DNA of 64,000 bases from positions 20,460,001 to 20,524,000 of the forward strand of contig OZ360246.1 of assembly GCA_977017645.1 (NCBI GenBank), in the 5' to 3' direction. Below the pieces are notes generated by a model, which saw only the letters and a list, made by a program, of their open reading frames with translations, was not told the DNA's origin and made no database searches. Origin of the DNA: Torpedo marmorata. Taxonomy: Eukaryota. Shown here in pieces: positions 3,728 through 64,000 of the stretch (position 1 is the stretch's first letter; each line of letters opens with the position of its first letter). The position numbers and the translations under genes are program-made.

Positions 3728-3774
3728 TCTCCTATCCGTTTCCCTATCAGTCTGGTTCCCTTCCCCCTGCCAAT

Positions 3775-17859: not shown

Positions 17860-18090
17860 TAAATTTAGACATACAGCACGGTAACAGACCCTTTCGGTCC
17901 TCAAGCCCTTGCCGCCCAATTACACCCAATTGACCTACAACACCCGGTATGTTTTGAAGGGTGGGAGGAAACCAGAGTCCCTGGGGAAAACCCACGGGGA
18001 GAACGTACAAACTCCTTACAGACAGCGCGGGATTCGAACCCCGGTCCCCATCGCTAGCGCTGTAACAACGTTGCGCTAACCGTGCCACCC
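17860..18090 (-). mobile_element. tRNA-derived V-SINE
   Basis: B box GGTTCGAATCC, V-domain-like gtaaggagtttgtacgttctccccgtg...ggtttcctcccac, CR1-like tail, and AATTT TSD at 17855 and 18091. Confidence 0.85.
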
Positions 18091-18269
18091 AATTTGGTAA
18101 AAATATTAATTATTTGAACAGGTTGTTTACAGACAACACTGAATCAGCTCATGAGGTGGGTCGGGTGGAGTATGATCAGGGATATGACTGTGCACAAACA
18201 AAAGTCAACCCTACAGTATGGCAACCAGAACTACACACAATATTCCAGGTGCACTTTCACCAACATCTT

Positions 18270-19813: not shown

Positions 19814-20498
19814 GACATGATTTCCTATGAATAACATCATGGTGATTATCCTTATTCAGTCCTTGCCTTTTGAAATGCAGAGAGATCTTGTCTCTCTAAA
19901 TCCCCTCAAGTAACTTTCTCACACTGATGTCAAGCTTACTGGTCTGTAGTTCCGTGCATTGATTCTGCAGCCCTTCTTAAATAAAGGCACAACATTAGCC
20001 ACCCTCCAATCTTCTTGTATCTCACCCATGGTGAAGGAAGATACAAAAAAAATATCTTCCCTTACTGCCCATAACATCCTGTTCAGGCCCTGGAGTGTTA
20101 TTCAACTTTCTGCAGCTCAAGACGACCAACACCTCTTCTTCTGTAACATCAATATGTTTCAGGACATCACTGTTCTCTTCCCTGAATCCCCAAGTAGACA
20201 TGATCTTCTCCGTGGTAAATACAGATAAGAAGTATTCATTTAAGACCTCACCCATCTCGTGTAGCTCCACACATAAATGACTATACTGATCCTTGAGGGG
20301 ATCTATTCTCTCCCTAGTTACCCTTTTGCTCCTAACATAAAGAATCTTTTTAAATTCTCCTTTATCTGATCTGCCAAGGATATCTCAAGTCTTCTATTTC
20401 CACTCCTTATTTCTGCTCTTCAATGTCCCTTGTCAGCCAGTGTTCTCTAATTCTGCCAGCCTTGCCATTCACTGCAACAGGAACCTGTTGGCCCTAAA

Positions 20499-20734
20499 GC
20501 AGCACCAATAGCCTGAATACAACTGGGATTGTCTGATCTCGGAAGCTAAGCAGGCACAGGACTGGTCAGTACTTGGAGGGGAGACCGCCTAGGAACACCA
20601 GGTGCTGTAGGTTTCTGTGAGGGGTGCTGGACAAAGTAGCGACTCTCTGTCTGCCTTACGGTAGACAAAAATTAAATAATTTCATGTATGTTACATTCTA
20701 AATGTAGTATTACGTGACAATAATGGAACCTTTA
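20499..20734 (+). mobile_element. 5S rRNA-derived SINE (SINE3-type)
   Basis: 5S head (gtctgatctcggaagctaagcagg...agtacttggaggggagaccgcctaggaacaccaggtgctgtagg) with A and C boxes, a ~120-bp non-5S tail, and a 7-bp TSD CCCTAAA at 20492 and 20735. Confidence 0.85.
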
Positions 20735-21544: not shown

Positions 21545-21559
21545 TATTTTCATTGGTAG
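21545..21559 (+). promoter_or_regulatory. Putative 3' splice acceptor of the giant exon
   Basis: tattttcattggtAG|CT GAA (phase 1) at the switch from AT-rich intron to S/T-coding sequence. The last in-frame stop is at 21520. An alternative AG at 21566-21567 would be phase 0. Confidence 0.65.
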
Positions 21560-24500
21560 CTGAACAGATCAAAGAAACGTATTCTTCTTCAACACGTGCA
21601 TCATCGAGAACTGAACCATCTTCAGAATCCCATCAGACAAAAGAGGCAGCATTGTCCAACACAGAATCTTCATCGCAAACACCGGAAATTGGACAAGCAA
21701 CATCAGCCACAATATCATCAGTGGAAACACAGACAGCACAGGAGATACAAAGAAGGGAACATTCAGTTCAAACCTATCCAAACCCAACACATGTACCTTC
21801 AGTAATGGTGTCCAGATCAGCAACATATTCATCACTTATGATGGAGTCCTCAAGAGAAAAATTCTCCACTTCAACAGAACTTTCATCGAAAATTGATTCA
21901 TCTTCAGAAAGCCGTAAAACAACAGAAGTATCTTCGATTGCTGCGTCCTCCTCGCAAACACATCCAACAAGTGTGGACTCATTATTAACCAAGCTTTCGA
22001 CAAAAGCACATAAAAAAACAGCAAAAGTCTCCTCAGAAAGTGTGTCTGGAACTGAAATTCACTTCACATCATCATCATCATCATTTTCATCTCAGTCCTC
22101 ATCAAAGACTCATCCATCCTTCACACTAGTATCATCCACAACCAAACCTTCCTCAGAAACCCATCTGACAACACTGGAATCAACAAGCACAGAACATTCA
22201 ACACAGCTCCATGAAAGCTCAACAAAAGCTTCACCTGTAACTGTGACTCCCATTGAATCACCCCACACATCCTCATCATCTTCATTGCTCACTGAATACA
22301 CATCAGAAGCAACGGTGATAACTGAATCTTCATCAGAATCCCACACAATAACAGAGGTATCTTCGATCACAACATCCTCTTCAGAAGAACATCCCACGTA
22401 TCATGAATCAACATTAACAGAGCGGTCAACAGAAACCCATCCAAGCACAACACAAATTTCTTCAGAAAGTTTGTCCCCATCACAAACCCATTTTACAGCA
22501 ACAACTTTACCTTTCCAAACTGAGAGCTCAGCAGGAACCTATTCTGAATCAACACAAGTCAAATCTACCAGTCAATCTTCATCAGTATACCATTCAACTA
22601 CAGAACAAACATCAATCACTATCCCATCCAGTGAAACACATCACACACCTAAGCAGGAACCCATTACATCTGCACATCCAAACAAAACACAAGCTTCAAC
22701 AGGAACTCGATTCACTTCAGAAACAAAGGTAACATCACCAATCACAGAGGTAACGGAGTACCCATCAGCAAAACACCCAAGAACAACAGAAACATCATCC
22801 ACAACAGAATATTCATCACAAACACTGAAAAATAGACGAGCAACATCAGCCAAAACGTCATCAGTAGAAACACAGACAACACACGAGTCAATAAGAACAG
22901 AACATTCACCACACACCTTTTCAGGCCCAACACACGTACCTTCAGAAACTGTGACCAAACCAGAAACACCTTTAACAGCAGCAACTTCATCACTAATGAC
23001 GGAATCCTCAAGGGAAACATTCTCCACGTCAACAGAACGTTCACCAAAAATTGAATCGTCATCAGAAAGCCGTATAACAACAGAAGTATCTTCCATTGCT
23101 GCGACCTCATCGCCAACACATCCAACAACAAGAGTGGAATCATCATTACCCGAGCTTTCAAAAACAGCACATGAACAAACAACAAAAGTCACCTCAGAAA
23201 GTGTTTCTGCATCTCAAACTCACTTCACAACATCCTCATCATCCTTTTCACCGCAGTCCTCATCGGAGACCCATCCAACCCCCACACAAGTATCATCCAC
23301 AACCAAACCTTCCTCAGAAACCAATCTGACAAAACTGGAATCAACAAGCACAGAACATTCAACACAGCTCCATGAAAGCTCAACCCAAGCTTCATCTGTA
23401 ACTGTGTCTCCCACTGAATCACCCCACACATCCTCATCATCTTCATTGCTCACTGAATACACATCAGAAGTCAATTCAGCACCTCCAGAAGCAACTGTGA
23501 TAACTGAATCTTCTTCAGAATCCAACTCGATAACAGAGGTATCTTCAAATACAACACCTTCTTCAGAAGAACATACCACATCTCATGAATCAACAATAAC
23601 GGAGCAGTCAACAGAAACCCAACCAAGCACAACACAGATTTCCTCAGAAACTTTGTCCCCATCACGAATCCATGTTACAGCAACAACATTACATTCCCAA
23701 ACTGAAAGCTCAGCAGGAGCCTATTCTGAATTAACACAAGTCACATCTACCAGCCGATCTTCATCAGTATCCCATCCAACGATAGAACTAACATCAATCA
23801 CCGTCTCCTTCACTGAAACACATCACACACCTAAGCAGGCACCCATTACATCTGCACATACAATCAAACCACAAGCTTCAACAGGAAGTCTATTCACTTC
23901 AGCAACTATGGTAACATCACCAATCACAGAGGCAACTGAGATCCCTTCAGCAAAATATTCAAGCGCTACAGAGCCATCAGCCACAACGGAATTCTCATCA
24001 CAAACACTGCAAAATATACAAGCCTCATCAAGTACAACGTCATCAGTAGAAACACAGACAACAATAGAGGAGTCAGCAAGAACAGAATATTCACCACAAA
24101 CCTCTGCAAGCCAAACACAGGTTACCTCAGAAAGTGTGTCTCCTTCTCACTCCCATTTAACCTCAAGACAATTATCATTGACGACACCTTCCTCAACAAA
24201 GTCACTTTCTTCATTCGGGAAAGAAACCTCAACAGCTGAATCCTCATCAGAAACACGGCCAACAACAGAATCGTTCACAATCACAAGGTCCACTCGTAAA
24301 AGCAGAACGAAAAACCCGGAGTCGTCACCCACAGATTATTCAAAGCAAATCCATTCAAATGCAACACAAGTTCCATCAGTAACGGTGTCCAAACCAGAAA
24401 CTCTCTCAGAAACAGCAGCAACTTCATCACTAATGACGGAATCCTCAAGGGAAACATTCTCCACGTCAACAGAACGTTCACCAAAAATTGAATCGTCATC

Positions 24501-27500
24501 AGAAAGCCGTATAACAACAGAAGTATCTTCCATGGCTGAGACCTCATCACAAACACATCCAACAACAAGAGTGGAATCATCATTACCCGAGCTTTCAACA
24601 ACAGCACGTGAACAAACAACAAAAGTCACCTCAGAAAGTGTTTCTGCATCTCAAACTCACTTCACAACATCCTCATCATCCTTTTCACCGCAGTCCTCAT
24701 CAGAGACCCATCCAACCTCTACACAAATATCATCCACAAACAAACCTTCCTCAGAAACCCATCTGACAACACTGGAATCAACAAGCACAGAACATTCAAC
24801 ACAGCTCCATGAAAGCTCAACACAAGCTTCATCTGTAACTGTGTCTCCCACTGAATCACCCCACACATCCTCATCATTTTCATTGCTAACTGAATCCACA
24901 TCAGAAGTCAATTCAGCACCTACAGAAGCAACTGTGATAACTGAATCTACTTCAGAATCCAACTCGATAACAGAGGTATCTTCAAACACAACACCTTCTT
25001 CAGAAGAACATACCACATCTCATGAATCAACAATAACTGAGCAGTCAACAGAAACCCAACCAAGCACAACACAAATTTCCTCAGAAAGTTTGTCCCCATC
25101 ACAAATCCATGTTACTGCAACAACATTACATTCCCAAACTGAAAGCTCAGCAGGAACCTATTCTGAATTAACAGAACTCACATCTACCAGCCGATCTTCA
25201 TCAGTATCCCATCCAACGACAGAACTAACATCAATCACCGTCTCCTCCAGTGAAACACATTACACACCTAAGCAGGAACCCATCACATCTGCACATACAA
25301 ACAAAACACAAGCTTCAACAGGAACTCGATTCACTTCAGAAACTATGGTAACATCACCAATCACAGAGGCAACTGAGATCCCTTCTGCAAAGCACCCAAG
25401 TTCAACAAGGCCATCGTCCACAACTGAATCTTCATCACAAACACTGAAAAATAGACAAGCATCATCAAGTACAACGTCATCAGTAGAAACACAGACAACA
25501 ATAGAGGAGTCAGCAAGAACAGAATATTCACCACAAACCTCTGCAAGCCAAACACAAGTTCCCTCAGAAAGTGTGTCTACTTCCCACTTCCATTTAACCT
25601 CAAGAAAATTATCATTGACGACACCTTCCTCAACACAGTCACTTTCTTCATTTGGGAAAGAAACCTCAACGGCTGAATCCTCATCAGAAACACGGCCAAC
25701 AACAGAATCATTCACAATCACAAGGTCCACTCGTGAAAGCAGAACGAAAAACCCTGAATTGTCACCCACAAATTATTCAAAGCAAATCCATTCAAACGCA
25801 ACACAAATTTCATCAGTAACGGTGTCCAAACCAGAAACTCACTCAGAAACAGCAGCAACTTCATCACTAATGACGGAATCCTCAAGGGAAACATTCTACA
25901 CGTCAACAGAACGTTCACCAAAAATTGAATCGTCATCAGAAAGCCGTATAACAACAGAAGTATCTTCCATTGCTGAGACCTCATCACAAACACATCCAAC
26001 AACAAGAGTGGAATCATCATTACCCGAGCTTTCAACAACAGCACGTGAACAAACAACAAAAGTCACCTCAGAAAGTGTTTCTGCATCTCAAACTCACTTC
26101 ACAACATCCTCATCATCCTTTTCACCGCAGTCCTCATCAGAGAACCATCCAACCTCTACACAAGTATCATCCACAACCAAACCTTCCTCAGAAACCTATC
26201 TGACAACACTGGAATCAACAAGCACAAAACATTCAACACAGCTCCATGAAAGCTCAACCCAAGCTTCATTTGTAACTGTGTCTCCCACTGAATCACCCCA
26301 CACATCCTCATCATCTTCATTGCTCACTGAATACACATCAGAAGTCAATTCAGCACCTACAGAAGCAACTATGATAACTGAATCTTCTTCAGAATCCAAC
26401 TCAATAACAGAGGTATCTTCAAACACACCTTCTTCAGAAGAACATACCACATCTCATGAATCAACAATAACTGAGCAGTCAACAGAAACCCAACCAAGCA
26501 CAACACAAATTTCCTCAGAAACTTTGTCCCCATCACGAATCCATGTTACAGCAACAACATTACATTCCCAAACGGAAAGCTCAGCAGAATCCTATACTGA
26601 ATCAAAAGAAGTCACATCTACCATCCGATCTTCATCAGTATCCCATCCAACGACAGAACTAACATCAATCACCGTCTCCTCCAGTGAAACACATCACACA
26701 ACAAAGCAGGAACCCATCACATCTGCACATACAAACAAAAGACAAACTTCAACAGGAACTCAATTCACTTCAGAAACTATGGTAACATCACCAATCACAG
26801 AGGCAACAGAGATCACTTCAGCAAAATACACAAGCACTCCAGGGCCATCATCCACAACGGAATTCTCATCACAAACACTGCAAAATAGACAAGCCTCATT
26901 AAATACAACGTCATCAGTAGAAACACAGACAACAATAGAGGAGTCAGCAAGAACAGAATATTCACCACAAACCTCTGCAAGCCAAACACAGGTTCCCTCA
27001 GAAAGTGTGTCTCCTTCTCACTCCCATTTAACCTCAAGACAATTATCATTGACGACACCTTCCTCAACACAGTCACTTTCTTCATTCGGGAAAGAAACCT
27101 CAACAGCTGAATCCTCATCAGAAACACGGCCAACAACAGAATCATTCACAATCACAAGGTCCACTCGTGAAAGCAGAATGAAAAACCCGGAGTCGTCACC
27201 CACAGATTATTCAACGCAAATCCATTCAAACACAACTCAAGTTTCATCAGCAACGGTGTCCAAACCAGAAACTCACTCAGAAACAGCAGCAACTTCATCA
27301 CTAATGACGGAATCCTCAAGGGAAACATTCTCCACGTCAACAGAACGTTCACCAAAAATTGAATCGTCATCAGAAAGCCGTATAACAACAGAAGTATCTT
27401 CCATTGCAGCGACCTCATCACAAACACATCCAACAACAAGAGTGGAATCATCATTACCCGAGCTTTCAACAAAACCAAGAGAACAAACAACAAAAGTCAC

Positions 27501-30500
27501 CTCAGAAAGTGTTTCTGCATCTCAAACTCACTTCACAACATCCTCATCATCCTTTTCACCGCAGTCCTCATCAGAGACCCATCCAACCTCTACACAAGTA
27601 TCATCCACAACCAATCCTTCCTCAGAAACCTATCTGACAACACTGGAATCAACAAGCACAGAACATTCAACACAGCTCCATGAAAGCTCGACCCAAGCTT
27701 CATCTGTAACTGTGTCTCCCACTGAATCACCCCACACATCCTCATCATCTTCATTGCTAACTGAATCCACGTCAGAAGTCAATACAGCACCTGCAGAAGC
27801 AACTGTGATAACTGAATCTACTTCAGAATCAAACTCGATAACAGAGGTATCTTCAAACACAACACCTTCTTCAGAAGAACATAGCACATCTCATGAATCA
27901 ACTATAACTGAGCGGTCAACAGAAACCCAACCAAGCACAACACAAATTTCCTCAGAAAGTTTGTCCCCATCACGAATCCATTTTACAGCAACAACATTAC
28001 ATTCCCAAACTGAAAGCTCAGCAGGAACCTACTCTGAATTAACACAAGTTACATCTACCAGCCGATCTTCATCAGTATCCCATCCAACGACAGAACTAAC
28101 ATCAATCACCGTCTCCTCCAGTGAAAGACATCACACACCTAAGCAGGAACTCATTACATCTGCACATACAAACAAAACACAAGCTTCAACAGGAACTCAA
28201 TTCACTTCAGAAACTATGGTAACATCACCAATTACAGAAGCAACTGAGATCCCTTCTGCAAAACACCCAAGTTCAACAGGGCCATCGTCCACAACAGAAT
28301 CTTCATCACAAACGCTGAAAAATATACAAGCATCATCAAGTACAACGTCATCAGTAGAAACACAGACAACAATAGAGGAGTCAGCAAGAACAGAATATTC
28401 ACCACAAACCTCTGCAAGCCAAACACAGGTTCCCTCAGAAAGTGTGTCTCCTTCTCACTCCCATTTAACCTCAAGACAATTATCATTGACGACACCTTCC
28501 TCAACACAGTCACTTTCTTCATTTGGGAAGGAAACCTCAACAGCTGAATCCTCATCAGAAACACGGCCAACAACAGAAACGTTCACAATCACAAGGTCCA
28601 CTCATAAAAGCAGAACGAATAACCCGGATTCGTCACCCACAGATTATTCAACGCAAATCCATTCAAACGCAACACAAGTTTCATCAGTAACGGTGTCCAA
28701 ACCAGAAACTCACTCAGAAACAGCAGCAACTTCATCACTAATGACGGAATCCTCAAGGGAAACATTCTCCACGTCAACAAAACGTTCACCAAAAATTGAA
28801 TCGTCATCAGAAAGCCATATAACAACAGAAGTATCTTCCATTGCAGCGACCTCATCGCAAACACATCCAACAACAAGAGTGGAATCATCATTACCCGAGC
28901 TTTCAACAACAGCACGTGAACAAACAACAAAAGTCATCTCAGAAAGTGTTTCTGCATCTCAAACTCACTTCACAACATCCTCATCATCCTTTTCACCGCA
29001 GTCCTCATCAGAGAACCATCCAACCTCTACACAAGTATCATCCACAACCAAACCTTCCTCCGAAACCCATCTGACAACACTGGAATCAACAAGCACAGAA
29101 CATTCAACACAGCTCCATGAAAGCTCAACCCAAGCTTCATCTGTAACTGTGTCTCCCACTGAATCACCCCACACATCCTCATCATCTTCATTGCTCACTG
29201 AATCCACATCAGAAGTCTATTCAGCACCTGCAGAAGCAACTGTGATGACAGAATCTACTTCACAATCCATCTCAATAACAGAGGTATCTTTGAACACAAC
29301 ACCTTCTTCAGAAGAACATACCACATCTCATGAATCAACAATAACTGAGCAGTCAACAGAAACCCAACCAAGCACAACACAGATTTCCTCAGAAACTTTG
29401 TCCCCATCACAAATCCATGTTACAGCAACAACATTACATTCCCAAACTAAAAGCTCAGCAGGAGCCTATTCTGAATCAACAGAAGTCACATCTACCAGCC
29501 GATCTTCATCAGTATCCCATCCAACGACAGAACTAACATCAATCACTGTCTCCTCCAGTGAAACACATCACACAACTAAGCAGGAACACATCACATCTGC
29601 ACATACAAACAAAAGACAACCTTCAACAGGAACTCAATTCACTTCAGAAACTATGGTAACATCACCAATCACAGAGGCAACTGAGATCCCTTCAGCAAAA
29701 TACCCAAGTTCAACAGGGCCATCGTCCACAACAGAATCTTCATCACAAACGCTGAAAAATATACAAGCCTCATCAAGTACAACGTCATCAGTAGAAACAC
29801 AGACAACAATAGAGGAGTCAGCAAGAACAGAATATTCACCACAAACCTCTGCAAGCCAAACACAAGTTACCTCAGAAAGTGTGTCTCCTTCTCACTCCCA
29901 TTTAACCTCAAGACAATTATCATTGACGACACCTTCCTCAACACAGTCACTTTCTTCATTCGGGAAAGAAACCTCAACAGCTGAATCCTCATCAGAAACA
30001 CGGCCAACAACAGAAACGTTCACAATCATAAGGTCCACTCGTAAAAGCAGAACGAAAAACCCGGAGTCGTCACCCACAAATTATTCAACGCAAATCCATT
30101 CAAACGCAACACAAGTTTCATCAGTAACGGTGTCCAAACCAGAAACTCTCTCAGAAACAGCAGCAACTTCATCACTAATGACGGAATCCTCAAGGGAAAC
30201 ATTCTCCACGTCAACAGAACGTTCACCAAAAATTGAATCGTCATCAGAAAGCCGTATAACAACCGAAGTATCTTCCATTGCAGCGACCTCATCACAAACA
30301 CATCCAACAACAAGAGTGGAATCATCATTACCCGAGCTTTCAACAACAGCACGTGAACAAACAACAAAAGTCACCTCAGAAAGTGTTTCTGCATCTCAAA
30401 CTCACTTCACAACATCCTCATCATCCTTTTCACCGCAGTCCTCATCAGAGACCCATCCAACCTCGACACAAGTATCATCCACAACCAAACCTTCCTCAGA

Positions 30501-33500
30501 AACCTATCTGACAACACTGGAATCAACAAGCTCAACACAAGCTTCATCTGTAACTGTGTCTCCCACTGAATCACCCCACACATCCTCATCATCTTCATTG
30601 CTAACTGAATCCACATCGGAAGTCAATTCAGCACCTACAGAAGCAACTGTGATAACTGAATCTTCTTCAGAATCCAACTCGATAACAGAGATATCTTTGA
30701 ACACAACACCTTCTTCAGAAGAACATAGCACATCTCATGAATCAACAATAACCGAGCGGTCAACAGAAACCCAACCAAGCACAACACAAATTTCCTCAGA
30801 CAGTTTGTCCCCATCACGAATCCATGTTACAGCAACAACATTACATTCCCAAAATGAAAGCTCAGCAGGAACCTACTCTGAATTAACACAAGTTACATCT
30901 ACCAGCCGATCTTCATCAATATCCCATCCAACGACAGAACTAACATCAATCACCGTCTCCTCCAGTGAAACACATCACACACCTAAGCAGGAACCCATTA
31001 CATCTGCACATACAAACAAAACACAAGCTTCAACAGGAACGCAATTCACTTCAGAAACTATGGTAACATCACCAATCACAGAGGCAACTGAGATCCCTAC
31101 TGCAAAACAACCAAGTTCAACAGGGCCATCGTCCACAACAGAATCTTCATCACAAACGCTGAAAAATATACAAGCATCATCAACTGCAATGTCATCAGTA
31201 GAAACACAGACAACAATAGAGGAGTCAGCAAGAACAGAATATTCACCACAAACCTCTGCAAGCCAAACACAGGTTTCCTCAGAAAGTGTGTCACCTTCTC
31301 ACTCCCATTTAACCTCAAGACAATTATCATTGACGACACCTTCCACAACACAGTCACTTTCTTCATTCGGGAAAGAAACCTCAACAGCTGAATCCTCATC
31401 AGAAACACGGCCAACAACAGAAACGTTCACAATCACAAGGTCCACTCGTAAAAGCAGAACGAATAACCCTGAATCGTCACCCACAAATTATTCAACGCAA
31501 ATCCATTCAAACGCAACACAAGTTTCATCAGTAACGGTATCCAAACCAGAAACTCTCTCAGAAAAAGCAGCAACTTCATCACTAATGACGGAATCCTCAA
31601 GGGAAACATTCTCCACGTCAACTGAACGTTCACCAAAAATTGAATCGTCATCAGAAAGCCGTATAACAACAGAAGTATCTTCAATTGCTGCGACCTCATC
31701 ACAAACACATTCAACAACAAGAGTGGAATCATCATTACCCGAGCTTTCATCAACAGCACGAGAACAAACAACAAAAGTCACCTCAGAAAGTGTTTCTGCA
31801 TCTCAAACTCACTTCACAACATCCTCATCATCCTTTTCACCGCAGTCCTCATCAGAGACCCATCCAACCTCTACACAAGTATCATCCACAACCAAACCTT
31901 CCTCAGAAACCCATCTGACAACACTGGAATCAACAAGCACAGAACATTCAACACAGCTCCATGAAAGCTCAACCCAAGCTTCATCTGTAACTGTGTCTCC
32001 CACTGAATCACCCCACACATCCTCATCATCTTCATTGCTCACTGAATCCACAACAGAAGTCAATTCAGCACCTACAGAAGCAACTGTGATGACAGAATCT
32101 ACTTCAGAATCCATCTCAATAACAGAGGTATCTTTGAACACAAGACCTTCTTCAGAAGAACATACCACATCTCATGAATCAACAATAACTGAGCAGTCAA
32201 CAGAAACCCAACCAAGCACAACACAGATTTCCTCAGAAACTTTGTCCCCATCACGAATCCATGTTACAGCAACAACATTACATTCCCAAACTGAAAGCTC
32301 AGCAGAATCCTATACTGAATCAACAGAAGTCACATCTACCAGCCGATCTTCATCAGTATCCCATCCAACGACAGAACTAGCATCAATCACCGTCTCCTCC
32401 AGTGAAACACATCACACAACTAAGCAGGAACCCATCACATCTGCACATACAAACAAAAGACAACCTTCAACAGGAACTCAATTCACTTCAGAAACTATGG
32501 TAACATCACCAATCACAGAGGCAACAGAGATCCCTTCAGCAAAATACACAAGCACTACAGGGCCATCATCCACAACGGAATTCTCATCACAAACACTGCA
32601 AAATAGACAATCCTCATCAAGTACAATGTCATCAGTAGAAACACAGACAACAATAGAGGAGTCAGCAAGAACAGAATATTCACCACAAACCTCTGCAAGC
32701 CAAACACAGGTTACGTCCGAAAGTGTGTCTCCTTCTCACTCTCATTTAACCTCAAGACAATTATCATTGACGACACCTTCCTCAACACAGTCACTTTCTT
32801 CATTTAGGAAAGAAACCTCAACAGCTGAATCCTCATCAGAAACACGGCCAACAACAGAATCATTCACAATCACAAGGTCAACTCGTGAAAGCAGAACGAA
32901 AAACCCGGAGTCGTCACCCACAGATTATTCAACGCAAATCCATTCAAACACAACTCAAGTTTCATCAGCAACGGTGTCCAAACCAGAAACTCTCTCAGAA
33001 ACAGCAGCAACTTCATCACTAATGACGGACTCCTCAAGGGAAACATTCTCCACGTCAACTGAACGTTCACCAAAAATTGAATCGTCATCAGAAAGCCGTA
33101 TAACAACAGAAGTATCTTCCATTGCAGCGACCTCATCACAAACACATCCAACAACAAGAGTGGAATCATCATTACCCGAGCTTTCAACAACACCAAGTGA
33201 ACAAACAACAAAAGTCACCTCAGAAAGTGTTTCTGCATCTCAAACGCACTTCACAACAATCTCATCATCCTTTTCACTGCAGTCCTCATCAGAGACCCAT
33301 CCAACCTCTACACAAGTACCATCCACAACCAAACCTTCCTCTGAAACCCATCTGACAACACTGGAATCAACAAGCACAGAACATTCAACACAGCTCCATG
33401 AAAGCTCAACCCAAGCTTCATCTGTAACTGTGTCTCCCACTGAATCACCCCACACATCCTCATCATCTTCATTGCTCACTGAATCCACATCAGAAGTCTA

Positions 33501-51500: not shown

Positions 51501-54500
51501 ATTGTCACCCACAAATTATTCAACGCAAATCCATTCAAACGCAACACAAGTTTCATCAGTAACGGTGTCCAAACCAGAAGCTCACTCTGAAACAGCAGCA
51601 ACTTCATCACTAATGACGGAATCCTCAAGGGAAACATTCTCCACGTCAACAGAACGTTCACCAAAAATTGAATCGTCATCAGAAAGCCGTATAACAACAG
51701 AAGTATTTTCCATTGCAGCGACCTCATCACAAACACATCCAACAACAAGAGTGGAATCATCATTACCCGAGCTTTCAACAACAGCACGTGAACAAACAAC
51801 AAAAGTCACCTCAGAAAGTGTTTCTGCATCTCAAACTCACTTCACAACATACTCATCATCCTTTTCACCGCAGTCCTCATCAGAGACCCATCCAACCTCT
51901 ACACAAGTATCATCCACAACCAAACCTTCCTCAGAAACCCATCTGACAACACTGGAATCAACAAGCACAGAACATTCAACACAGCTCCATGAAAGCTCAA
52001 CACAAGCTTCATCTGTAACTGTGTCTCCCACTGAATCACCCCACACATCCTCATCATCTTCATTGCTAACTGAATTCGCATCAGAAGTCAATTCAGCACC
52101 TACAGAAGCAACTGTGATAACTGAATCTTCTTCAGAATCCATCTCGATAACAGAGATATCTTTGAACACAACACCTTCTTCAGAAGAACATACCACATCT
52201 CATGAATCAACAATAACTGAGCAGTCAACAGAAACCCAACCAAGCACAACACAGATTTCCTCAGAAACTTTGTCCCCATCAAGAATCCATGTTACAGCAA
52301 CAACATTACATTCCCAAACGGAAAGCTCAGCAGAATCCTATACTGAATCAACAGAAGTCACATCTACCAGCCGATCTTCATCAGTATCCCATCCAACGAC
52401 AGAACTAACATCAATCACCGTCTCCTCCAGTGAAACACATCACACACCTAAGCAGGAACCCATTACATCTGCACATACAAACAAAACACAAGCTTCAACA
52501 GGAACGCAATTCACTTCAGAAACTATGGTAACATCACCAATCACAGAGGCAACTGAGATCCCTTCTGCAAAACACCCAAGTTCAACAAGGCCATCGTCCA
52601 CAACAGAATCTTCATCACAAACGCTGAAAAATATACAAGCATCACCAAGTACAACGTCATCAGTAGAAACACAGACAACAATAGAGGAGTCAGCAAGAAC
52701 AGAATATTCACCACAAACCTCTGCAAGCCAAACACAAGTTCCCTCAGAAAGTGTGTCTCCTTCTCACTCCCATTTAACCTCAAGACAATTATCATTGACG
52801 ACACCTTCCTCAACACAGTCACTTTCTTCATTCGGGAAAGAAACCTCAACAGCTGAATCCTCATCAGAAACACGGCCAACAACAGAAACGTTCACAATTC
52901 CAAGGTCCACTCGTAAAAGCAGAACGAAAAACCCTGAATTGTCACCCACAAATTATTCAACGCAAATCCATTCAAACGCAACACAAGTTTCATCAGTAAC
53001 GGTGTTGAAACCAGAAACTCTCTCAGAAACAGCAGCAACTTCATCACTAATGACGGAATCCTCAAGGGAAACATTCTCCACGTCAACAGAACGTTCACCA
53101 AAAATTGAATCGTCATCAGAAAGCCGTATAACAACAGAATTATCTTCCATTGCAGCGACCTCATCACAAACACATCCAACAACAAGAGTGGAATCATCAT
53201 TACCCGAGCTTTCAACAACAGCACGTGAACAAACAACAAAAGTCACCTCAGAAAGTGTTTCTGCATCTCAAACTCACTTCACAACATCCTCATCATCCTT
53301 TTCACCGCAGTCCTCATCAGAGACGCATCCAACCTCTACACAAGTATCATCCACAACCAAACCTTCCTCAGAAACCCATCTGACAACACTGGAATCAACA
53401 AGCACAGAACATTCAACACAGCTCCATGAAAGCTCAACACAAGCTTCATCTGTAACTGTGTCTCCCACTGAATCACCCCACACATCCTCATCATCTTCAT
53501 TGCTAACTGAATTCGCATCAGAAGTCAATTCAGCACCTACAGAAGCAACTGTGATAACTGAATCTTCTTCAGAATCCAACTCGATAACAGAGATATCTTT
53601 GAACACAACACCTTCTTCAGAAGAACATACCACATCTCATGAATCAACAGTAACTGAGCAGTCAACAGAAACCCAACCAAGCACAACACAAATTTCCTCA
53701 GAAACTTTGTCCCCATCACGAATCCATGTTACAGCAACAACATTACATTCCCAAACGGAAAGCTCAGCAGAATCCTATACTGAATCAACAGAAGTCACAT
53801 CTACCAGCCGATCTTCATCAGTATCCCATCCAACGACAGAACTAACATCAATCACCGTCTCCTCCAGTGAAACACATCACACAACTAAGCAGGAACCCAT
53901 CACATCTGCACATACAAACAAAAGACAACCTTCAACAGGAACTCAATTCACTTCAGAAACTATGGTAACATCACCAATCACAGAGGCAACTGAGATCCCT
54001 TCAGCAAAATACCCAAGCACTAAAGGGCCATCATCCACAACGGAATTCTCATCACAAACACTGCAAAAGAGACAAGCCTCATCAAGTACAACGTCATCAG
54101 TAGAAACACAGACAACAATAGAGGAGTCAGCAAGAACAGAATATTCACCACAAACCTCTGCAAGCCAAACACAGGTTACCTCAGAAAGTGTGTCTCCTTC
54201 TCACTCCCATTTAACCTCAAGACAATTATCATTGACGACACCTTCCTCAACACAGTCACTTTCTTCATTCGGGAAAGAAACCTCAACAGCTGAATCCTCA
54301 TCAGAAACACGGCCAACAACAGAAACTTTCACAATCACAAGGTCCACTCGTAAAAGCAGAACGAAAAACCCTGAATCGTCACCCACAAATTATTCAACGC
54401 AAATCCATTCAAACGCAACACAAGTTTCATCAGTAACGGTGTTGAAACCAGAAACTCTCTCAGAAACAGCAGCAACTTCATCACTAATGACGGAATCCTC

Positions 54501-57500
54501 AAAGGAAACATTCTCCACGTCAACAGAACGTTCACCAAAAATTGAATCGTCATCAGAAAGCCGTATAACAACAGAAGTATCTTCCTTTGCAGCGACCTCA
54601 TCACAAACACATCCAACAACAAGAGTGGAATCATCATTACCCGAGCTTTCAACAACAGCACGAGAACAAACAACAAAAGTCACCTCAGAAAGTGTTTCTG
54701 CATCTCAAACTCACTTCACAACATCCTCATCATCCTTTTCACCGCAGTCCTCATCAGAGACCCATCCAACCTCTACACAAGTATCATCCACAACCAAACC
54801 TTCCTCAGAAACCCATCTGACAACACTGGAATCAACAAGCACAGAACATTCAACACAGCTCCATGAAAGCTCAACCCAAGCTTCATCTGTAACTGTGTCT
54901 CCCACTGAATCACCCCACACATCCTCATCATCTTCATTGCTCACTGAATCCACATCAGAAGTCAATTCAGCACCTACAGAAGCAACTGTGATGACAGAAT
55001 CTACTTCAGAATCCATCTCAATAACAGAGGTATCTTTGAACACAAGACCTTTTTCAGAAGAACATACCACATCTCATGAATCAACAATAACTGAGCAGTC
55101 AACAGAAACCCAACCAAGCACAACACAGATTTCCTCAGAAACTTTGTCCCCATCACGAATCCATATAACAGCAACAACGTTACATTCCCAAACTGAAAGC
55201 TCAGCAGGAGCCTATTCTGAATCAACAGAAGTCACATCTACCAGCCGATCTTCATCAGTATCCCATCCAACGACAGAACTAACATCAATCACCGTCTCCT
55301 CCAGTGAAACACATCACACAACTAAGCAGGAACACATCACATCTGCACATACAAACAAAAGACAACCTTCAACAGGAACTCAATTCACTTCAGAAACTAT
55401 GGTAACATCACCAATCACAGAGGCAACTGAGATCCCTTCAGCAAAATACCCAAGTTCAACAGGGCCATCGTCCACTACAGAATCTTCATCACAAACGCTG
55501 AAAAATATACAAGCATCATCAAGTACAACGTCATCAGTAGAAACACAGACAACAATAGAGGAGTCAGCAAGAACAGAATATTCACCACAAACCTCTGCAA
55601 GCCAAACACAGGTTACCTCAGAAAGTGTGTCTCCTTCTCACTCCCATTTAACCTCAAGACAATTATCATTGACGACACCTTCCTCAACACAGTCACTTTC
55701 TTCATTTAGGAAAGAAACCTCAACAGCTGAATCCTCATCAGAAACACGGCCAACAACAGAATCATTCACAATCACAAGGTCAACTCGTGAAAGCAGAACG
55801 AAAAACCCGGAGTCGTCACCCACAGATTATTCAACGCAAATCCATTCAAACACAACTCAAGTTTCATCAGCAACGGTGTCCAAACCAGAAAGTCTCTCAG
55901 AAACAGCAGCAACTTCATCACTAATGACGGAATCCTCAAGGGAAACATTCTCCACGTCAACAAAACGTTCACCAAAAATTGAATCGTCATCAGAAAGCCG
56001 TATAACAACAGAAGTATCTTCCATTGCAGCGACCTCATCACAAACACATCCAACAACAAGAGTGGAATCATCATTACCCGAGCTTTCAACAACAGCACGT
56101 GAACAAACAACAAAAGTCACCTCAGAAAGTGTTTCTGCATCTCAAACTCACTTCACAACATCCTCATCATCCTTTTCACCGCAGTCCTCATCAGAGACCC
56201 ATCCAACCTCTACACAAGTATCATCCACAACCAAACCTTCCTCAGAAACCCATCTGACAACACTGGAATCAACAAGCACAGAACATTCAACACAGCTCCA
56301 TGAAAGCTCAACACAAGCTTCATCTGTAACTGTGTCTCCCACTGAATCACCCCACACATCCTCATCATCTTCATTGCTAACTGAATTCGCATCAGAAGTC
56401 AATTCAGCACCGACAGAAGCAACTGTGATAACTGAATCTTCTTCAGAATCCAACTCGATAACAGAGATATCTTTGAACACAACACCTTCTTCAGAAGAAC
56501 ATACCACATCTCATGAATCAACAATAACTGAGCAGTCAACAGAAACCCAACCAAGCACAACACAAATTTCCTCAGAAACTTTGTCCCCATCACGAATCCA
56601 TGTTACAGCAACAACATTACATTCCCAAACGGAAAGCTCAGCAGAATCCTATACTGAATCAACAGAAGTCACATCTACCAGCCGATCTTCATCAGTATCC
56701 CATCCAACGACAGAACTAACATCAATCACCGTCTCCTCCAGTGAAACACATCACACAACTAAGCAGGAACCCATCACATCTGCACATACAAACAAAAGAC
56801 AACCTTCAACAGGAACTCAATTCACTTCAGAATCTATGGTAACATCACCAATCACAGAGGCAACTGAGATCCCTTCAGCAAAATACCCAAGCACTAAAGG
56901 GCCATCATCCACAACGGAATTCTCATCACAAACACTGCAAAAGAGACAAGCCTCATCAAGTACAACGTCATCAGTAGAAACACAGACAACAATAGAGGAG
57001 TCAGCAAGAACAGAATATTCACCACAAACCACTGCAAGCCAAACACAGGTTACCTCAGAAAGTGTGTCTCCTTCTCACTCCCATTTAACCTCAAGACAAT
57101 TATCATTGACGACACCTTCCTCAACACAGTCACTTTCTTCATTCGGGAAAGAAACCTCAACAGCTGAATCCTCATCAGAAACACGGCCAACAACAGAAAC
57201 TTTCACAATCACAAGGTCCACTCGTAAAAGCAGAACGAAAAACCCTGAATCGTCACCCACAAATTATTCAACGCAAATCCATTCAAACGCAACACAAGTT
57301 TCATCAGTAACGGTGTCGAAACCAGAATCTCTCTCAGAAACAGCAGCAACTTCATCACTAATGACGGAATCCTCAAAGGAAACATTCTCCACGTCAACAG
57401 AACGTTCTCCAAAAATTGAATCGTCATCAGAAAGCCGTATAACAACAGAAGTATCTTCCTTTGCAGCGACCTCATCGCCAACACATCCAACAACAAGAGT

Positions 57501-60500
57501 GGAATCATCATTACCCGAGCTTTCAACAACAGCACGAGAACAAACAACAAAAGTCACCTCAGAAAGTGTTTCTGCATCTCAAACTCACTTCACAACATCC
57601 TCATCATCCTTTTCACCGCAGTCCTCATCAGAGACCCATCCAACCTCTACACAAGTATCATCCACAACCAAACCTTCCTCCGAAACCCATCTGACAACAC
57701 TGGAATCAACAAGCACAGAACATTCAACACAGCTCCATGAAAGCTCAACCCAAGCTTCATCTGTAACTGTGTCTCCCACTGAATCACCCCACACATCCTC
57801 ATCATCTTCATTGCTAACTGAATCCACATCAGAAGTCAATTCAGCACCTACAGAAGCAACTGTGATGACAGAATCTACTTCAGAATCCATCTCAATAACA
57901 GAGGTATCTTTGAACACAAGACCTTTTTCAGAAGAACATACCACATCTCATGAATCAACAATAACTGAGCAGTCAACAGAAACCCAACCAAGCACAACAC
58001 AGATTTCCTCAGAAACTTTGTCCCCATCACGAATCCATATAACAGCAACAACATTACATTCCCAAACTGAAAGCTCAGCAGGAGCCTATACTGAATCAAC
58101 AGAAGTCACATCTACCAGCCGATCTTCATCAGTATCCCATCCAACGACAGAACTAACATCAATCACCGTCTCCTCCAGTGAAACACATCACACAACTAAG
58201 CAGGAACCCATCACATCTGCACATACAAACAAAAGACAACCTTCAACAGGAACTCAATTCACTTCAGAAACTATGGTAACATCACCAATCACAGAGGCAA
58301 CAGAGATCCCTTCAGCAAAATACCCAAGCACTACAGGGCCATCATCCACAACGGAATTCTCATCACAAACACTGCAAAATAGACAAGCATCATCAAGTAC
58401 AACGTCATCAGTAGAAACACAGACAACAATAGAGGAGTCAGCAAGAACAGAATATTCACCACAAACCTCTACAAGCCAAACACAGGTTACCTCAGAAAGT
58501 GTGTCTCCTTCTCACTCCCATTTAACCTCAAGACAATTATCATTGACGACACCTTCCTCAACACAGTCATTTTCTTCATTCGGGAAAGAAACCTCAACAG
58601 CTGAATCCTCATCAGAAACACGGCCAACAACAGAATCATTCACAATCACAAGGTCAACTCGTGAAAGCAGAACGAAAAACCCGGAGTCGTCATCCACAGA
58701 TTATTCAACGCAAATCCATTCAAACACAACTCAAGTTTCATCAGCAACGGTGTCCAAACCAGAAACTCTCTCAGAAACAGCAGCAACTTCATCACTAATG
58801 ACGGAATCCTCAAGGGAAACATTCTCCACGTCAACAAAACGTTCACCAAAAATTGAATCGTCATCAGAAAGCCGTATAACAACAGAAGTATCTTCCATTG
58901 CAGCGACCTCATCACAAACACATCCAACAACAAGAGTGGAATCATCATTACCCGAGCTTTCAACAACAGCACATGAACAAACAACAAAAGTCACCTCAGA
59001 AAGTGTTTCTGCATCTCAAACTCACTTCACAACAATCTCATCATCCTTTTCACCGCAGTCCTCATCAGAGACCCATCCAACCTCTAGACAAGTATCATCC
59101 ACAACCAAACATTCCTCAGAAACCCATCTGACAACACTGGAATCAACAAGCACAGAACATTCAACACAGCTCCATGAAAGCTCGACACAAGCTTCATCTG
59201 TAACTGTGTCTCCCACTGAATCACCCCACACATCCTCATCATCTTCATTGCTAACTGAATTCGCATCAGAAGTCAATTCAGCACCTACAGAAGCAACTGT
59301 GATAACTGAATATTCTTCAGAATCCATCTCGATAACAGAGATATCTTTGAACACAACACCTTCTTCAGAAGAACATACCACATCTCATGAATCAACAATA
59401 ACTGAGCAGTCAACAGAAACCCAACCAAGCACAACACAAATTTCCTCAGAAACTTTGTCCCCATCACGAATCCATGTTACAGCAACAACATTACATTCCC
59501 AAACGGAAAGCTCAGCAGAATCCTATACTGAATCAACAGAAGTCACATCTACCAGCCGATCTTCATCAGTATCCCATCCAACGACAGAACTAACATCAAT
59601 CACCGTCTCCTCCAGTGAAACACATCACACAACTAAGCAGGAACCCATCACATCTGCACATACAAACAAAAGACAACCTTCAACAGGAACTCAATTCACT
59701 TCAGAAACTATGGTAACATCACCAATCACAGAGGCAACAGAGATCCCTTCAGCAAAATACACAAGCACTAAAGGGCCATCATCCACAACGGAATTCTCAT
59801 CACAAACACTGCAAAAGAGACAAGCCTCATCAAGTACAACGTCATCAGTAGAAACACAGACAACAATAGAGGAGTCAGCAAGAACAGAATATTCACCACA
59901 AACCTCTGCAAGCCAAACACAGGTTACCTCAGAAAGTGTGTCTCCTTCTCACTCCCATTTAACCTCAAGACAATTATCATTGACGACACCTTCCTCAACA
60001 CAGTCACTTTCTTCATTCGGGAAAGAAACCTCAACAGCTGAATCCTCATCAGAAACACGGCCAACAACAGAATCATTCACAATCACAAGGTCCACTCGTA
60101 AAAGCAGAACGAAAAACCCTGAATCGTCACCCACAAATTATTCAACGCAAATCCATTCAAACGCAACACAGGTTTCATCAGTAACGGTGTCCAAACCAGA
60201 AACTCTCTCAGAAACAGCAGCAACTTCATCACTAATGACGGAATCCTCAAGGGAAACATTCTCCACGTCAACAGAACGTTCATCAAAAATTGAATCGTCA
60301 TCAGAAAGCCGTATAACAACAGAAGTATCTTCCATTGCTGCGACCTCATCACAAACACATCCAACAACAAGAGTGGAATCATCATTACCCGAGCTTTCAA
60401 CAACAGCACGTGAACAAACAACAAAAGTCACCTCAGAAAGTGTTTCTGCATCTCAAACTCACTTCACAACATCCTCATCATCCTTTTCACCGCAGTCCTC

Positions 60501-63500
60501 ATCAGAGACCCATCCAACCTCTACACAAGTATCATCCACAACCAAACCTTCCTCCGAAACCCATCTGACAACACTGGAATCAACAAGCACAGAACATTCA
60601 ACACAGCTCCATGAAAGCTCAACCCAAGCTTCATCTGTAACTGTGTCTCCCACTGAATCACCCCACACATCCTCATCATCTTCATTGCTAACTGAATCCA
60701 CATCAGAAGTCAATTCAGCACCTACAGAAGCAACTGTGATGACAGAATCTACTTCAGAATCCATCTCAATAACAGAGGTATCTTTGAACACAACACCTTC
60801 TTCAGAAGAACATACCACATCTCATGAATCAACAATAACGGAGCAGTCAACAGAAACCCAACCAAGCTCAACACAGATTTCCTCAGAAACTTTGTCCCCA
60901 TCACGAATCCATGTTACAGCAACAACAATACATTCCCAAACTGAAAGCTCAGCAGGAGCCTATTCTGAATCAACAGAAGTCACATCTACCAGCCGATCTT
61001 CATCAGTATCCCATCCAACGACAGAACTAACATCAATCACCGTCTCCTCCAGTGAAACACATCACACAACTAAGCAGGAACACATCACATCTGCACATAC
61101 AAACAAAAGACAACCTTCAACAGGAACTCAATTCACTTCAGAAACTATGGTAACATCACCAATCACAGAGGCAACTGAGATCCCTTCTGCAAAACACCCA
61201 AGTTCAACAGGGCCATCGTCCACAACAGAATCTTCATCACAAACGCTGAAAAATATACAAGCATCATCAAGTACAACGTCATCAGTAGAAACACAGACAA
61301 CAATAGAGGAGTCAGCAAGAACAGAATATTCACCACAAACCTCTGCAAGCCAAACACAAGTTCCCTCCGAAAGTGTGTCTCCTTCTCACTCCCATTTAAC
61401 CTCAAGACAATTATCATTGACGACACCATCCTCAACACAGTCACTTTCTTCATTCGGGAAAGAAACCTCAACAGCTGAATCCTCATCAGAAACACGGCCA
61501 ACAACAGAATCATTCACAATCACAATGTCCACTCGTAAAAGCAGAACGAAAAACCCTGAATTGTCACCCACAAATTATTCAACGCAAATCCATTCAAACG
61601 CAACACAAGTTTCATCAGTAACGGTGTCCAAACCAGAAACTCTCTCAGAAACAGCAGCAACTTCATCACTAGTGACGGAATCCTCAAGGGAAACATTCTC
61701 CACGTCAACAAAACGTTCACCAAAAATTGAATCGTCATCAGAAAGCCGTATAACAACAGAAGTATCTTCCATTGCAGCGACCTCATCGCAAACACATCCA
61801 ACAACAAGAGTGGAATCATCATTACCCGAGCTTTCAACAACAGCACGTGAACAAACAACAAAAGTCACCTCAGAAAGTGTTTCTGCATCTCAAACTCACT
61901 TCACAACATCCTCATCATCCTTTTCACCGCAGTCCTCATCAGAGACCCATCCAACCTCTACAAAAGTATCATCCACAACCATACCTTCCTCCGAAACCCA
62001 TCTGACAACACTGGAATCAACAAGCACAGAACATTCAACACAGCTCCATGAAAGCTCAACACAAGCTTCATCTGTAACTGTGTCTCCCACTGAATCACCC
62101 CACACATCCTCATCATCTTCATTGCTAACTGAATTCACATCAGAAGTCAATTCAGCACCTACAGAAGCAACTGTGATAACAGAATCTACTTCAGAATCCA
62201 TCTCGATAACAGAGATATCTTCGAACACAACACCTTCATCAGAAAAACATACCACATCTCATGAATCAACAATAACTGAGCAGTCAACAGAAACCCAACC
62301 AAGCACAACACAAATTTCCTCAGAAACTTTGTCCCCATCACGAATCCATGTTACAGCAACAACATTTCATTCCCAAACTGAAAGCTCAGCAGAATCCTAT
62401 ACTGAATCAACAGAAGTCACATCTACCAGCCGATCTTCATCAGTATCCCATCCAACGACAGAACTGACATCAATCACCGTCTCCTCCAGTGAAACACATC
62501 ACACAACTAAGCAGGAACCCATCACATCTGCACATACAAACAAAACACAAGCTTCAACAGGAACGCAATTCACTTCAGAAACTATGGTAACATCACCAAA
62601 CACAGAGGCAACTGAGATTCCTTCAGCAAAATATCCAAGCGCTACAGAGCCGTCATACACAACGGAATTCTCATCACAAACACTGCAAAATAGACAAGCC
62701 TCATCAAGTACAACGTCATCAGTAGAAACACAGACAACAATAGAGGAATCAGCAAGAACAGAATATTCACCACAAACCTCTGCAAGCCAAACACAGGTTA
62801 CCTCAGAAAGTGTGTCTCCTTCTCACTCCCATTTAACCTCAAGACAATTATCATTGACGACACCTTCCTCAACACAGTCACTTTCTTCATTTGGGAAAGA
62901 AACCTCAACAGCTGAATCCTCATCAGAAACACGGCCAACAACAGAATCATTCACAATCACAAGGTCCACTCATGAAAGCAAAACGAAAAACCCGGAGTCG
63001 TCACCCACAGATTATTCAACGCAAATCCATTCAAACACAACTCAAGTTTCATCAGTAACGGTGTCCAAACCAGAAACTCACTCTGAAACAGCAGCAACTT
63101 CATCACTAGTGACGGAATCCTCAAGGGAAACATTCTCCACGTCAACAAAACGTTCACCAAAAATTGAATCGTCATCAGAAAGCCGTGTAACAACAGAAGT
63201 ATCTTCCATTGCAGCGACCTCATCACAAACACATCCAACAACAAGAGTGGAATCATCATTACCCGAGCTTTCAACAACAGCACGTGAACAAACAACAAAA
63301 GTCACCTCAGAAAGTGTTTCTGCATCTCAAACTCACTTCACAACATACTCATCATCCTTTTCACCGCAGTCCTCATCAGAGACCCGTCCAACCTCTACAC
63401 AAGTATCATCCACAACCAAACCTTCCTCAGAAACCCATCTGACAACACTGGAATCAACAAGCACAGAACATTCAACACAGCTCCATGAAAGCTCAACACA

Positions 63501-64000
63501 AGCTTCATCTGTAACTGTGTCTCCCACTGAATCACCCCACACATCCTCATCATCTTCATTGATAATTGAATCCACATCAGAAGTCAATACAGCACCTGCA
63601 GAAGCAACTGTGATAACTGAATCTACTTCAGAATCCAACTCGATAACAGAGGTGTCTTCAAACACAACACCTTCTTCAGAAGAACATAGCACATCTCATG
63701 AATCAACAATAACTGAGCGGTCAACAGAAACCCAACCAAGCACAACACAAATTTCCTCAGAATCTTTGTCCCCATCACAAATCCATGTTACAGCAACAAC
63801 ATTACATTCCCAAACTGAAAGCTCAGCAGGAACCTATTCTGAATTAACAAAAGTTACATCTACCAGCCGATCTTCATCAGTATCCCATCCAACGACAGAA
63901 CTAACATCAATCACCGTCTCCTCCAGTGAAACACATCACACAACTAAGCAGGAACCCATCACATCTGCACATACAAACAAAAGACAACCTTCAACAGGAA
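21560..64000 (+). CDS. Giant mucin-like Ser/Thr-rich (PTS) coding exon, partial, runs off the window
   Basis: Frame 1 reads EQIKETYSSSTRASS... at 21562 and TSAHTNKRQPSTG at the window end. No frame-1 ORF with a stop appears in the ORF track, consistent with no stop in about 14,146 codons. One hand-translated unit (24601-26040) is about 26% S, 22% T, 11% E, 5% P and 4% H, with no C, W or D. Confidence 0.9.
22027..64000 (+). repeat. Coding tandem array of 1437-bp (479-aa) units, about 29 copies
   Basis: The anchor aaagtcacctcagaaagtgtttctgc recurs at about 23185, 24622, 26059, 27493 ... 63298. Spacings are 1437, except 1434 (once) and 1407 (four times). The first unit is 1161 bp and diverged. 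Confidence 0.97.

Follow-up and report, generated by a model that had tools for sequence, protein, structure and literature searches.

A 47-kb array of 479-residue coding repeats in the giant exon of a probable SEA-type membrane mucin gene of Torpedo marmorata

A stretch of 64,000 nucleotides of the Torpedo marmorata genome ("the window"; contig OZ360246.1, here C60) contains a long tandem array whose units share one open frame. Is such an array translated, or is it a satellite whose frame is open only by descent? The first-pass annotation of the window had favoured a translated array with an unusually long unit. Beyond the window we give extended positions, i.e. the position on C60 minus 20,460,000.

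Results

The open frame and the giant exon

One frame of the plus strand is free of stops from 21523 to the end of the window (14,159 codons) and runs on to extended position 71577, a total of 16,685 codons. As first noted, the other frames are full of stops (251–2,149 in each of the five). The features read from the window are as follows.

21546..21559, plus strand: splice acceptor of the giant exon, pyrimidine-rich with AG at its end
21560..64000, plus strand: in-window part of the giant S/T/P-rich (PTS) exon (whole exon 50,013 bp, to extended 71572)
21560..23187, plus strand: exon head, consisting of a diverged copy of the unit (84–90% to the consensus in the main alignments) that also has the 17-aa period
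23188..64000, plus strand: higher-order array, 28 whole units (23188–63300) and the start of a 29th
26425..26427, plus strand: 3-bp in-frame deletion in the third unit
30528..30529, plus strand: 30-bp in-frame deletion, in the units at 30370, 36088, 37495 and 41776

The giant exon is in phase 1 at both ends and consists of 48% S+T and 5.5% P. A single cysteine occurs among the 14,159 in-window residues, the array unit being pure PTS. Following the array are a partial unit, a unique PTS tail and a first EGF-like domain (about extended 71425–71556). A long S/T/P-rich tandem-repeat domain is thus held within a single large exon, as is characteristic of SEA-type membrane mucins. The exon is not a record for size, human MUC12 reaching 23,080 aa (PMC13345508).

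Organisation of the array

The array comprises 33 full units between 23188 and extended 70482 (about 47 kb): 27 of 1437 bp, four of 1407 bp and two of 1434 bp (479, 469 and 478 aa). All 33 are distinct. They differ from one another by 3.8% on average (range 0.14–6.2%) and carry 329 distinct derived alleles at 297 columns with no stop among them, which bears out the initial description of many substitutions and no nonsense codon. The length variants, a second 3-bp loss at extended 67547 included, are all in frame as had been reported. Since the four 30-bp deletions have identical breakpoints they represent one event, and the observation rests on three independent indels, not on five or six. The commonest codons are TCA (14.3%), ACA (13.5%) and GAA (8.7%), and 37.6% of all codons lie one change from a stop. 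The view that the dominant codons border on stops therefore holds for TCA and GAA but not for ACA, which is more than one step away; AAA makes up only 2.0% and TCG falls outside the top 14.

With growing distance between variant sites, their incompatibility climbs from 0.15 to 0.41, and a unit's nearest relative is often not its neighbour, a pattern that fits recombination among units.

Each 479-aa unit is itself a higher-order block of about 29 degenerate monomers of 16–17 aa. Mean amino-acid identity is 29% between monomers and 93% between units. The 17-aa autocorrelation of the unit is clear at the DNA level (z 6.8) and borderline at the protein level (z 3.4 versus a 99% null of 3.5). The same 17-aa monomer is present in the PTS region of the catshark orthologue, and a profile built from catshark monomers only scored z=10.1 on the Torpedo unit; four other PTS regions gave −1.7 to 1.3. 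The monomer was not seen in the Chiloscyllium stretch examined (150 aa adjoining the EGF domain). A search with one unit among proteins of 840–2,395 aa gave no match at E≤1e-5, which is weak evidence.

Selection on the reading frame

The open frame is under genuine selection. In the frame of the array, none of the 258 one-step chances of a stop was realised, whereas 70 of 899 were across the five others (Fisher p=1.1e-8); confined to plus-strand frames the contrast is 0/258 versus 20/324 (p=6e-6). Shuffled units never gave an open frame (0 of 20,000; minimum 5 stops). Neutral simulation had been named in the first-pass annotation as the check on chance: on neutral placement of the 329 changes no run out of 20,000 was stop-free (mean 18.1 stops), and even with 168 changes only one in 20,000 was. 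Zero stops is hence not expected by chance. Likewise, no frameshift was seen where 25.5 were expected at the rate that 69 pairs of repeat copies in the flanking DNA give. A trinucleotide null predicted 6.3 stops; as it was trained on purged data it is biased low, and we relied on the comparison across frames in its place. On the consensus background three alleles look like stops, but each lies in a codon with another change.

Constraint on the amino acids of the array is weak. The dN/dS between units, which the first-pass annotation had also called for, is 0.74–0.85 by allele counting only, that is, near 1. A synonymous excess of marginal significance (p=0.02) becomes smaller under the trinucleotide model.

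These data bear on the possibility that the array is a non-coding satellite or an assembly artefact, its open frame inherited from one recently amplified unit. Mean unit identity is indeed 96%, and the array was read from the assembly. Against this stand the distinctness of all 33 units, the 329 alleles without a stop and the single stop-free run obtained with 168 changes. Furthermore, there are no Ns in 464 kb, the diverged head copy is open too, and the exon joins a conserved C-terminus in frame (see below). We regard this explanation as already largely refuted and give it hardly any weight.

Terminal exons and C-terminal domains

Eight GT-AG exons beyond the window extend the frame of the giant exon. 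All nine exons have GT-AG boundaries and together form 16,997 codons without a stop. A search of 141 kb upstream for a signal-peptide exon left four sequences that passed the filter, one of them plausible; no intervening phase-1 exons were found between it, at −17.9 kb, and the giant exon. The exons assigned outside the window are listed below.

About −17991 to −17901 (upstream of the window), plus strand: putative first exon, candidate signal peptide
Extended 72055–72176, 74700–74764 and 76102–76304, plus strand: SEA exons, with a GSIV motif
Extended 76768–76930, plus strand: Cys/EGF-like exon
Extended 81136–81297, plus strand: end of the EGF-like domain and transmembrane exon, with a hydrophobic stretch
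Extended 91903–91973, 92885–93036 and 93231–93275 (stop), plus strand: tail exons

The order EGF-like, single SEA, EGF-like, transmembrane segment is that of the MUC3/MUC12/MUC17 cluster. The EGF profile matches are weak (E 0.012–0.04). The transmembrane segment is seen as the hydrophobic stretch and as a helix in the model of a Pristis homologue, and is followed by the three tail exons. Pfam SEA matched one of the gene's own exons at E=0.024, under the cut-off; two SEA exons, searched singly by sequence against the PDB, returned no SEA structure, and in a genome-wide Pfam SEA search the SEA of this gene was absent among the 100 matches listed. Because these matches are weak or absent, the evidence for the fold was taken through the Pristis pectinata protein XP_051895312.1 (66% identity). 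This protein had no Pfam match, and the top PDB matches of its AlphaFold model are MUC16 SEA domains (E 2.5e-4 and 8.4e-4). Five of the 12 matches from the homologue search match Pfam SEA, three above the cut-off. A SEA domain between the PTS region and the membrane is thus indicated mainly by proxy. The G and S of GSIV, the GS-hydrophobic motif, are invariant in 12 of 12 aligned relatives, and self-cleavage at this point is predicted. There is only one SEA in the gene model, unlike the tandem modules of MUC16; the multi-SEA array of this genome sits on another contig (C54).

Relatives of the gene

A full HMMER search gave 12 matches, of which 10 were looked up by name (P0006 and P0011 were not); P0006 looked unrelated and was excluded from later comparisons. 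A word-index search with the Cys-rich exon gave no match. Over 370–383 C-terminal residues the gene is 66% identical to Pristis 'mucin-17' (XP_051895312.1), 61% to Scyliorhinus torazame scyTo_0020580, 56% to Chiloscyllium GCC35035.1, 45% to Callorhinchus 'mucin-3A' (XP_007896060.2) and about 33% to teleost 'mucin-3A/3B-like' proteins. Homologous proteins occur in sharks, rays, a chimaera, teleosts and a newt. The four cartilaginous-fish proteins, which share the EGF-SEA-EGF-TM-tail region at 44–66% identity, are very likely orthologues. No second copy was found in the Torpedo genome by a search with the Pristis protein (stricter search mode).

Whereas the Torpedo gene would encode about 17,000 aa, the relatives' records hold 344–891 aa and are without most of the PTS exon. 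None of these records contains the 479-aa higher-order unit, the catshark PTS stretch (510 aa) being too short to judge. Such short or partial models would suit a real gene whose full 50-kb exon is seldom or never translated, short splice forms doing the work while the array drifts, and so would a dN/dS near 1. However, an untranslated array would not purge some 18 expected stops and 25 expected frameshifts, and the first EGF-like domain shares its exon with the array. We consider this reading very improbable. The alternative of a translated array is in keeping both with the purging of stops and frameshifts and with in-frame splicing into a conserved SEA-mucin C-terminus, and the original proposal of translation over a satellite is in this respect supported.

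Genomic position

The gene lies on C60 between a MRPS16-type exon and ODAD1-family exons, not between ACHE and TRIM56-SERPINE1, where the MUC3/MUC12/MUC17 cluster is located. On C58, SRRT, an AChE-family gene, other SEA/PTS mucins and a serpin are found together, as in the arrangement of that cluster; the C58 SEA genes showed no significant match to the C-terminus of the C60 gene (160 kb examined). Like the Pristis and Scyliorhinus proteins, the C60 gene model terminates in an acidic/polar tripeptide; it has no class I PDZ-binding motif. Because both the ACHE-linked position and the PDZ tail are absent, the gene is, as judged from sequence and position, likely a paralogue apart from MUC3/12/17 despite the database names.

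Alternatively it may be a true orthologue of the mammalian cluster that moved away from ACHE. The identical domain order and relatives named mucin-17, mucin-3A and mucin-3B-like speak for this, and human MUC3A/B combine a 17-aa repeat with one huge PTS exon (39,267 bp in MUC3B; PMC9578598). The neighbours on C60, the ACHE-type block on C58 and the missing PDZ motif speak against it, and none of the 10 looked-up clusters is named as mammalian. On balance we find orthology unlikely.

Discussion

We consider it highly probable that the array is the repeat core of a 50-kb exon in an intact SEA-type membrane mucin gene encoding about 17,000 aa. The gene class is a large but known type, and no new kind of system is among these findings. 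An old monomer of 16–17 aa, still visible in the catshark orthologue, would have decayed; a block of about 29 monomers would then have been amplified to 33 copies, and unequal crossing-over together with gene conversion would have shuffled the units. Selection would preserve the frame, since a stop anywhere would cost the protein its membrane anchor, with most amino-acid changes tolerated. The product is likely O-glycosylated and would form a long sugar-coated stalk on an epithelial surface; SEA self-cleavage, glycosylation and a glycocalyx barrier are the functions we propose.

Human MUC3A, MUC3B, MUC12 and MUC17 likewise have one very large PTS exon, a single SEA domain, a transmembrane segment and a tail, and differ from the Torpedo gene in their ACHE-SERPINE1 neighbourhood and class I PDZ motif. 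The Torpedo monomer and the MUC3A/B repeat are alike in length, and the homogenised unit in Torpedo is the 479-aa block, not the monomer. The claim of an unusually long unit stands against simple mucin repeats such as that of MUC6 (169 aa; PMC9712336), with the proviso that the unit is a higher-order block. Its length is not a record: for the central exon of human MUC5B a super-repeat of similar size, 528 aa in four copies, is already published (PMC6780288). MUC5B is secreted and gel-forming with a Cys-rich domain in its super-repeat, while the Torpedo unit is pure PTS and present in 33 copies. Our literature search, by title and beginning of abstract in freely accessible papers, found no publication on this gene in cartilaginous fish. 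Neither a MUC3 repeat of 375 units nor a bovine submaxillary mucin repeat of 329 aa was confirmed by the literature searched, and both were left out of the comparison.

Alpha-satellite higher-order repeats contain diverged monomers within near-identical higher-order units; the Torpedo array differs in being coding, selected against stops and only 47 kb long. With slightly less than even confidence, we suggest that the gene belongs to an ancient membrane-mucin lineage that databases mislabel MUC3/17. The lineage would be present in sharks, rays, chimaeras, bony fish and newts, and mammals may have lost it. The stalk would evolve like alpha-satellite DNA in one coding exon, a conserved 17-aa monomer being repackaged as a lineage-specific 479-aa unit in 33 copies. 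If so, no longer cysteine-free mucin repeat unit would be known to us, and the stalk would measure several micrometres. The locus supplies at full length a gene that is truncated below 900 aa in its database relatives. It suggests that fish and shark 'mucin-3/17' genes are not orthologues of the human cluster, and that an ACHE-linked mucin block was already present in cartilaginous fish. It also shows higher-order repeat turnover inside one coding exon and serves as a clean natural experiment on selection in mucin repeats, in which strict protection of the frame goes with almost free drift of the residues.

Gene structure and relatives

On the + strand, one frame stays open for 14,159 codons between 21523 and the end of the window, and its residues there include 3,765 S, 3,114 T, 1,476 E, 772 P and a single C. 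When 200 kb were fetched on each side of the window, the frame was found to terminate at 71577 (positions beyond 64000 are contig positions minus 20,460,000). No N occurs in the 464 kb around and including the window, which covers 20,460,001–20,524,000 of contig C60 in a 6.2-Gb genome. The 479-aa coding repeat with an open frame described in the first-pass annotation is real: its array comprises 33 full units (23188–70482), 28 of them within the window.

The array lies inside a giant exon of 50,013 bp, with its acceptor at 21560 and its donor at 71572, just past a Cys-rich EGF-like domain. Eight downstream GT-AG exons, reaching 93275, keep the frame, giving 16,997 codons in total.

Downstream exons (extended positions, + strand, GT-AG, in frame)
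72055–72176
74700–74764
76102–76304
76768–76930
81136–81297
91903–91973
92885–93036
93231–93275

Together these code for a SEA domain bearing a GSIV motif, for a Cys-rich/EGF-like part, and for a transmembrane stretch plus a tail. The best of the candidate first exons, an ATG-hydrophobic segment with a phase-1 donor, sits 39.5 kb upstream, where CpG is abundant.

When the 53-aa product of the Cys-rich exon was used as a HMMER query, 12 proteins matched, among them Pristis ‘mucin-17’, Chiloscyllium, Callorhinchus ‘mucin-3A’, Pleurodeles and teleost ‘mucin-3A/3B/4-like’ proteins; a Scyliorhinus (catshark) relative was added afterwards. C-terminal identity was 66% for Pristis, 61% for Scyliorhinus, 56% for Chiloscyllium, 45% for Callorhinchus and about 33% for teleosts, which points to a ray as the likely source of the DNA. 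The gene's own exons give a weak SEA signal; the assignment is backed by Pfam SEA matches in 5 of the 12 HMMER-found proteins and by a structure prediction for the Pristis protein (mean pLDDT 64, with block means of 71–95 across residues 111–350), whose top PDB matches are MUC16 SEA domains. A literature search confined to the main text of openly accessible papers found none on the gene, which is an unusually complete new example of a known mucin type.

Selection on the reading frame

All 33 units are distinct, with mean differences of 3.8% at the DNA level and 7.0% at the protein level. Across them 329 distinct derived alleles were counted, a lower bound on the mutations in the array. Under a neutral null in which alleles were scattered randomly following the base-change spectrum seen in the array (20,000 runs), 329 changes produced a mean of 18.1 stops and no stop-free run; with 168, 100 and 50 changes, stop-free runs numbered 1, 82 and 1,150 of 20,000. 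Zero stops is thus not expected by chance, and the reading as an array selected for an open frame stands. In a model-free control across frames, single changes that would create a stop triplet had been realised in 0 of 258 cases in the coding frame vs 70 of 899 in the other five (p=1.1e-8).

As a control for indels, 69 repeat-copy pairs in the flanks (85 kb) carried 3,814 substitutions and 351 indels, 296 of which were not multiples of three. Presuming similar indel rates in array and flanks, 25.5 frameshifts were predicted in the array vs 0 observed. The array's length variants (−3 at 26425, −30 in four units, −3 at 67547) are indeed all multiples of three, as had been noted for those within the window, but the four −30 variants have identical breakpoints, so that only three independent events are represented. 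Inter-unit dN/dS, one of the checks proposed at first pass, came to 0.74–0.85 (0.78 under the base model, 0.85 under a trinucleotide model, 0.74–0.84 for in-window units), with a synonymous excess at p=0.02; amino-acid selection in the array is weak. With stops and frameshifts purged and the exon joined in frame to SEA-mucin exons, the array was rightly read as coding.

Nested repeats

The 479-aa unit is itself a higher-order repeat. Its DNA autocorrelation has its peak at 17 codons (z 6.8 against a null maximum of 4.2), and secondary peaks at 67, 83, 161, 167 and 235 also exceed that maximum. The unit divides into 29 monomers of 13–20 aa (mean identity 29%). The S/T/P-rich repeat region (PTS) of the catshark orthologue clearly shows a 17-aa period (z 7.1), and a profile built from catshark monomers only scored z=10.1 over shuffles on the unit; this profile recognised none of four other PTS regions (the mucin on contig C58, goldfish, trout and a short Chiloscyllium stretch). 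Units that resemble each other most are often separated by 3–8 positions. Among 124 sites, four-gamete incompatibility is 0.15 at distances below 50 bp and reaches 0.41 beyond 400 bp; this would fit block duplication plus conversion. The points of interest are this satellite-like nesting and a likely misassigned orthology.

Known mucins and the MUC3 cluster

The 50-kb exon falls inside the known range. According to the cited papers, the human MUC3B PTS exon has 39,267 bp with a 17-aa repeat (PMC9578598), MUC12 alleles reach 23,080 aa (PMC13345508), MUC5B has four 528-aa super-repeats, Cys-rich region included (PMC6780288), the MUC6 repeat measures 169 aa (PMC9712336), and the sea bream SEA-type ‘I-Muc’ is an outlier in its tree (PMC3680472).

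The human MUC3/12/17 cluster has ACHE and TRIM56-SERPINE1 flanks and class I PDZ tails, whereas the present gene, on contig C60, has neither.

Neighbours on C60 (L-numbers, fetched stretches)
L031:4424–4564, MRPS16-type exon (Pfam), ~117 kb upstream of the giant exon
L006–L011, ODAD1-family exons (Pfam), from ~31 kb past the stop codon

A further neighbouring frame (L021:543–1142), without a Pfam match, presumably resembles the last exon of a sphingosine-1-phosphate phosphatase. The gene probably resembles MUC3/17 in its working yet lies outside that cluster.

On contig C58, the gene order at 36.45–44.17 Mb (L041–L056) is that of the human ACHE-MUC3-SERPINE1 block.

Features on C58
36.45 Mb, SRRT
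40.14 Mb, AChE-family exon, finer identity putative
40.57–40.97 Mb, four SEA matches with a PTS frame
44.16 Mb, serpin, finer identity putative

The PTS frame here has at least 1,678 codons, 61% S+T and an 11-aa period. The cluster has been suggested to have first emerged in amphibians (PMC9578598); the C58 block may move its origin back to cartilaginous fish.

Proposed mechanism

An intact gene, purged stops and frameshifts, and nested repeats are established. By analogy with SEA-type mucins (PMC9578598), the SEA domain would be cleaved, the S/T-rich stalk O-glycosylated, and the product displayed in the glycocalyx as a membrane-anchored heterodimer. A stop anywhere in the array would remove the membrane anchor, which would explain strict selection on the frame beside loose selection on residues. 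At 0.25 nm per residue, the stalk would measure ~4 micrometres.

Other features

Features of the window
747–4828 and 16028–19022, long frames resembling decayed LINE/reverse-transcriptase fragments, judged by eye
5644–6039, GC-rich minisatellite, 16–18-bp units
12314–12401, interstitial telomere-type hexamer repeat, ~15 degenerate copies
20495–20613, + strand, degenerate 5S rRNA-derived copy (44.9 bits), ~950 bp upstream of the giant exon

Elsewhere in the genome, contig C54 carries dozens of near-identical SEA matches every 3.6–4.2 kb at 34.10–34.26 Mb, a multi-SEA (MUC16-like) array, and additional SEA matches at 34.49–34.61 Mb. SEA matches in open frames of 665–971 aa on three other contigs (C332:395442, C43:50809599, C76:19722081) are possibly further PTS-SEA mucins.
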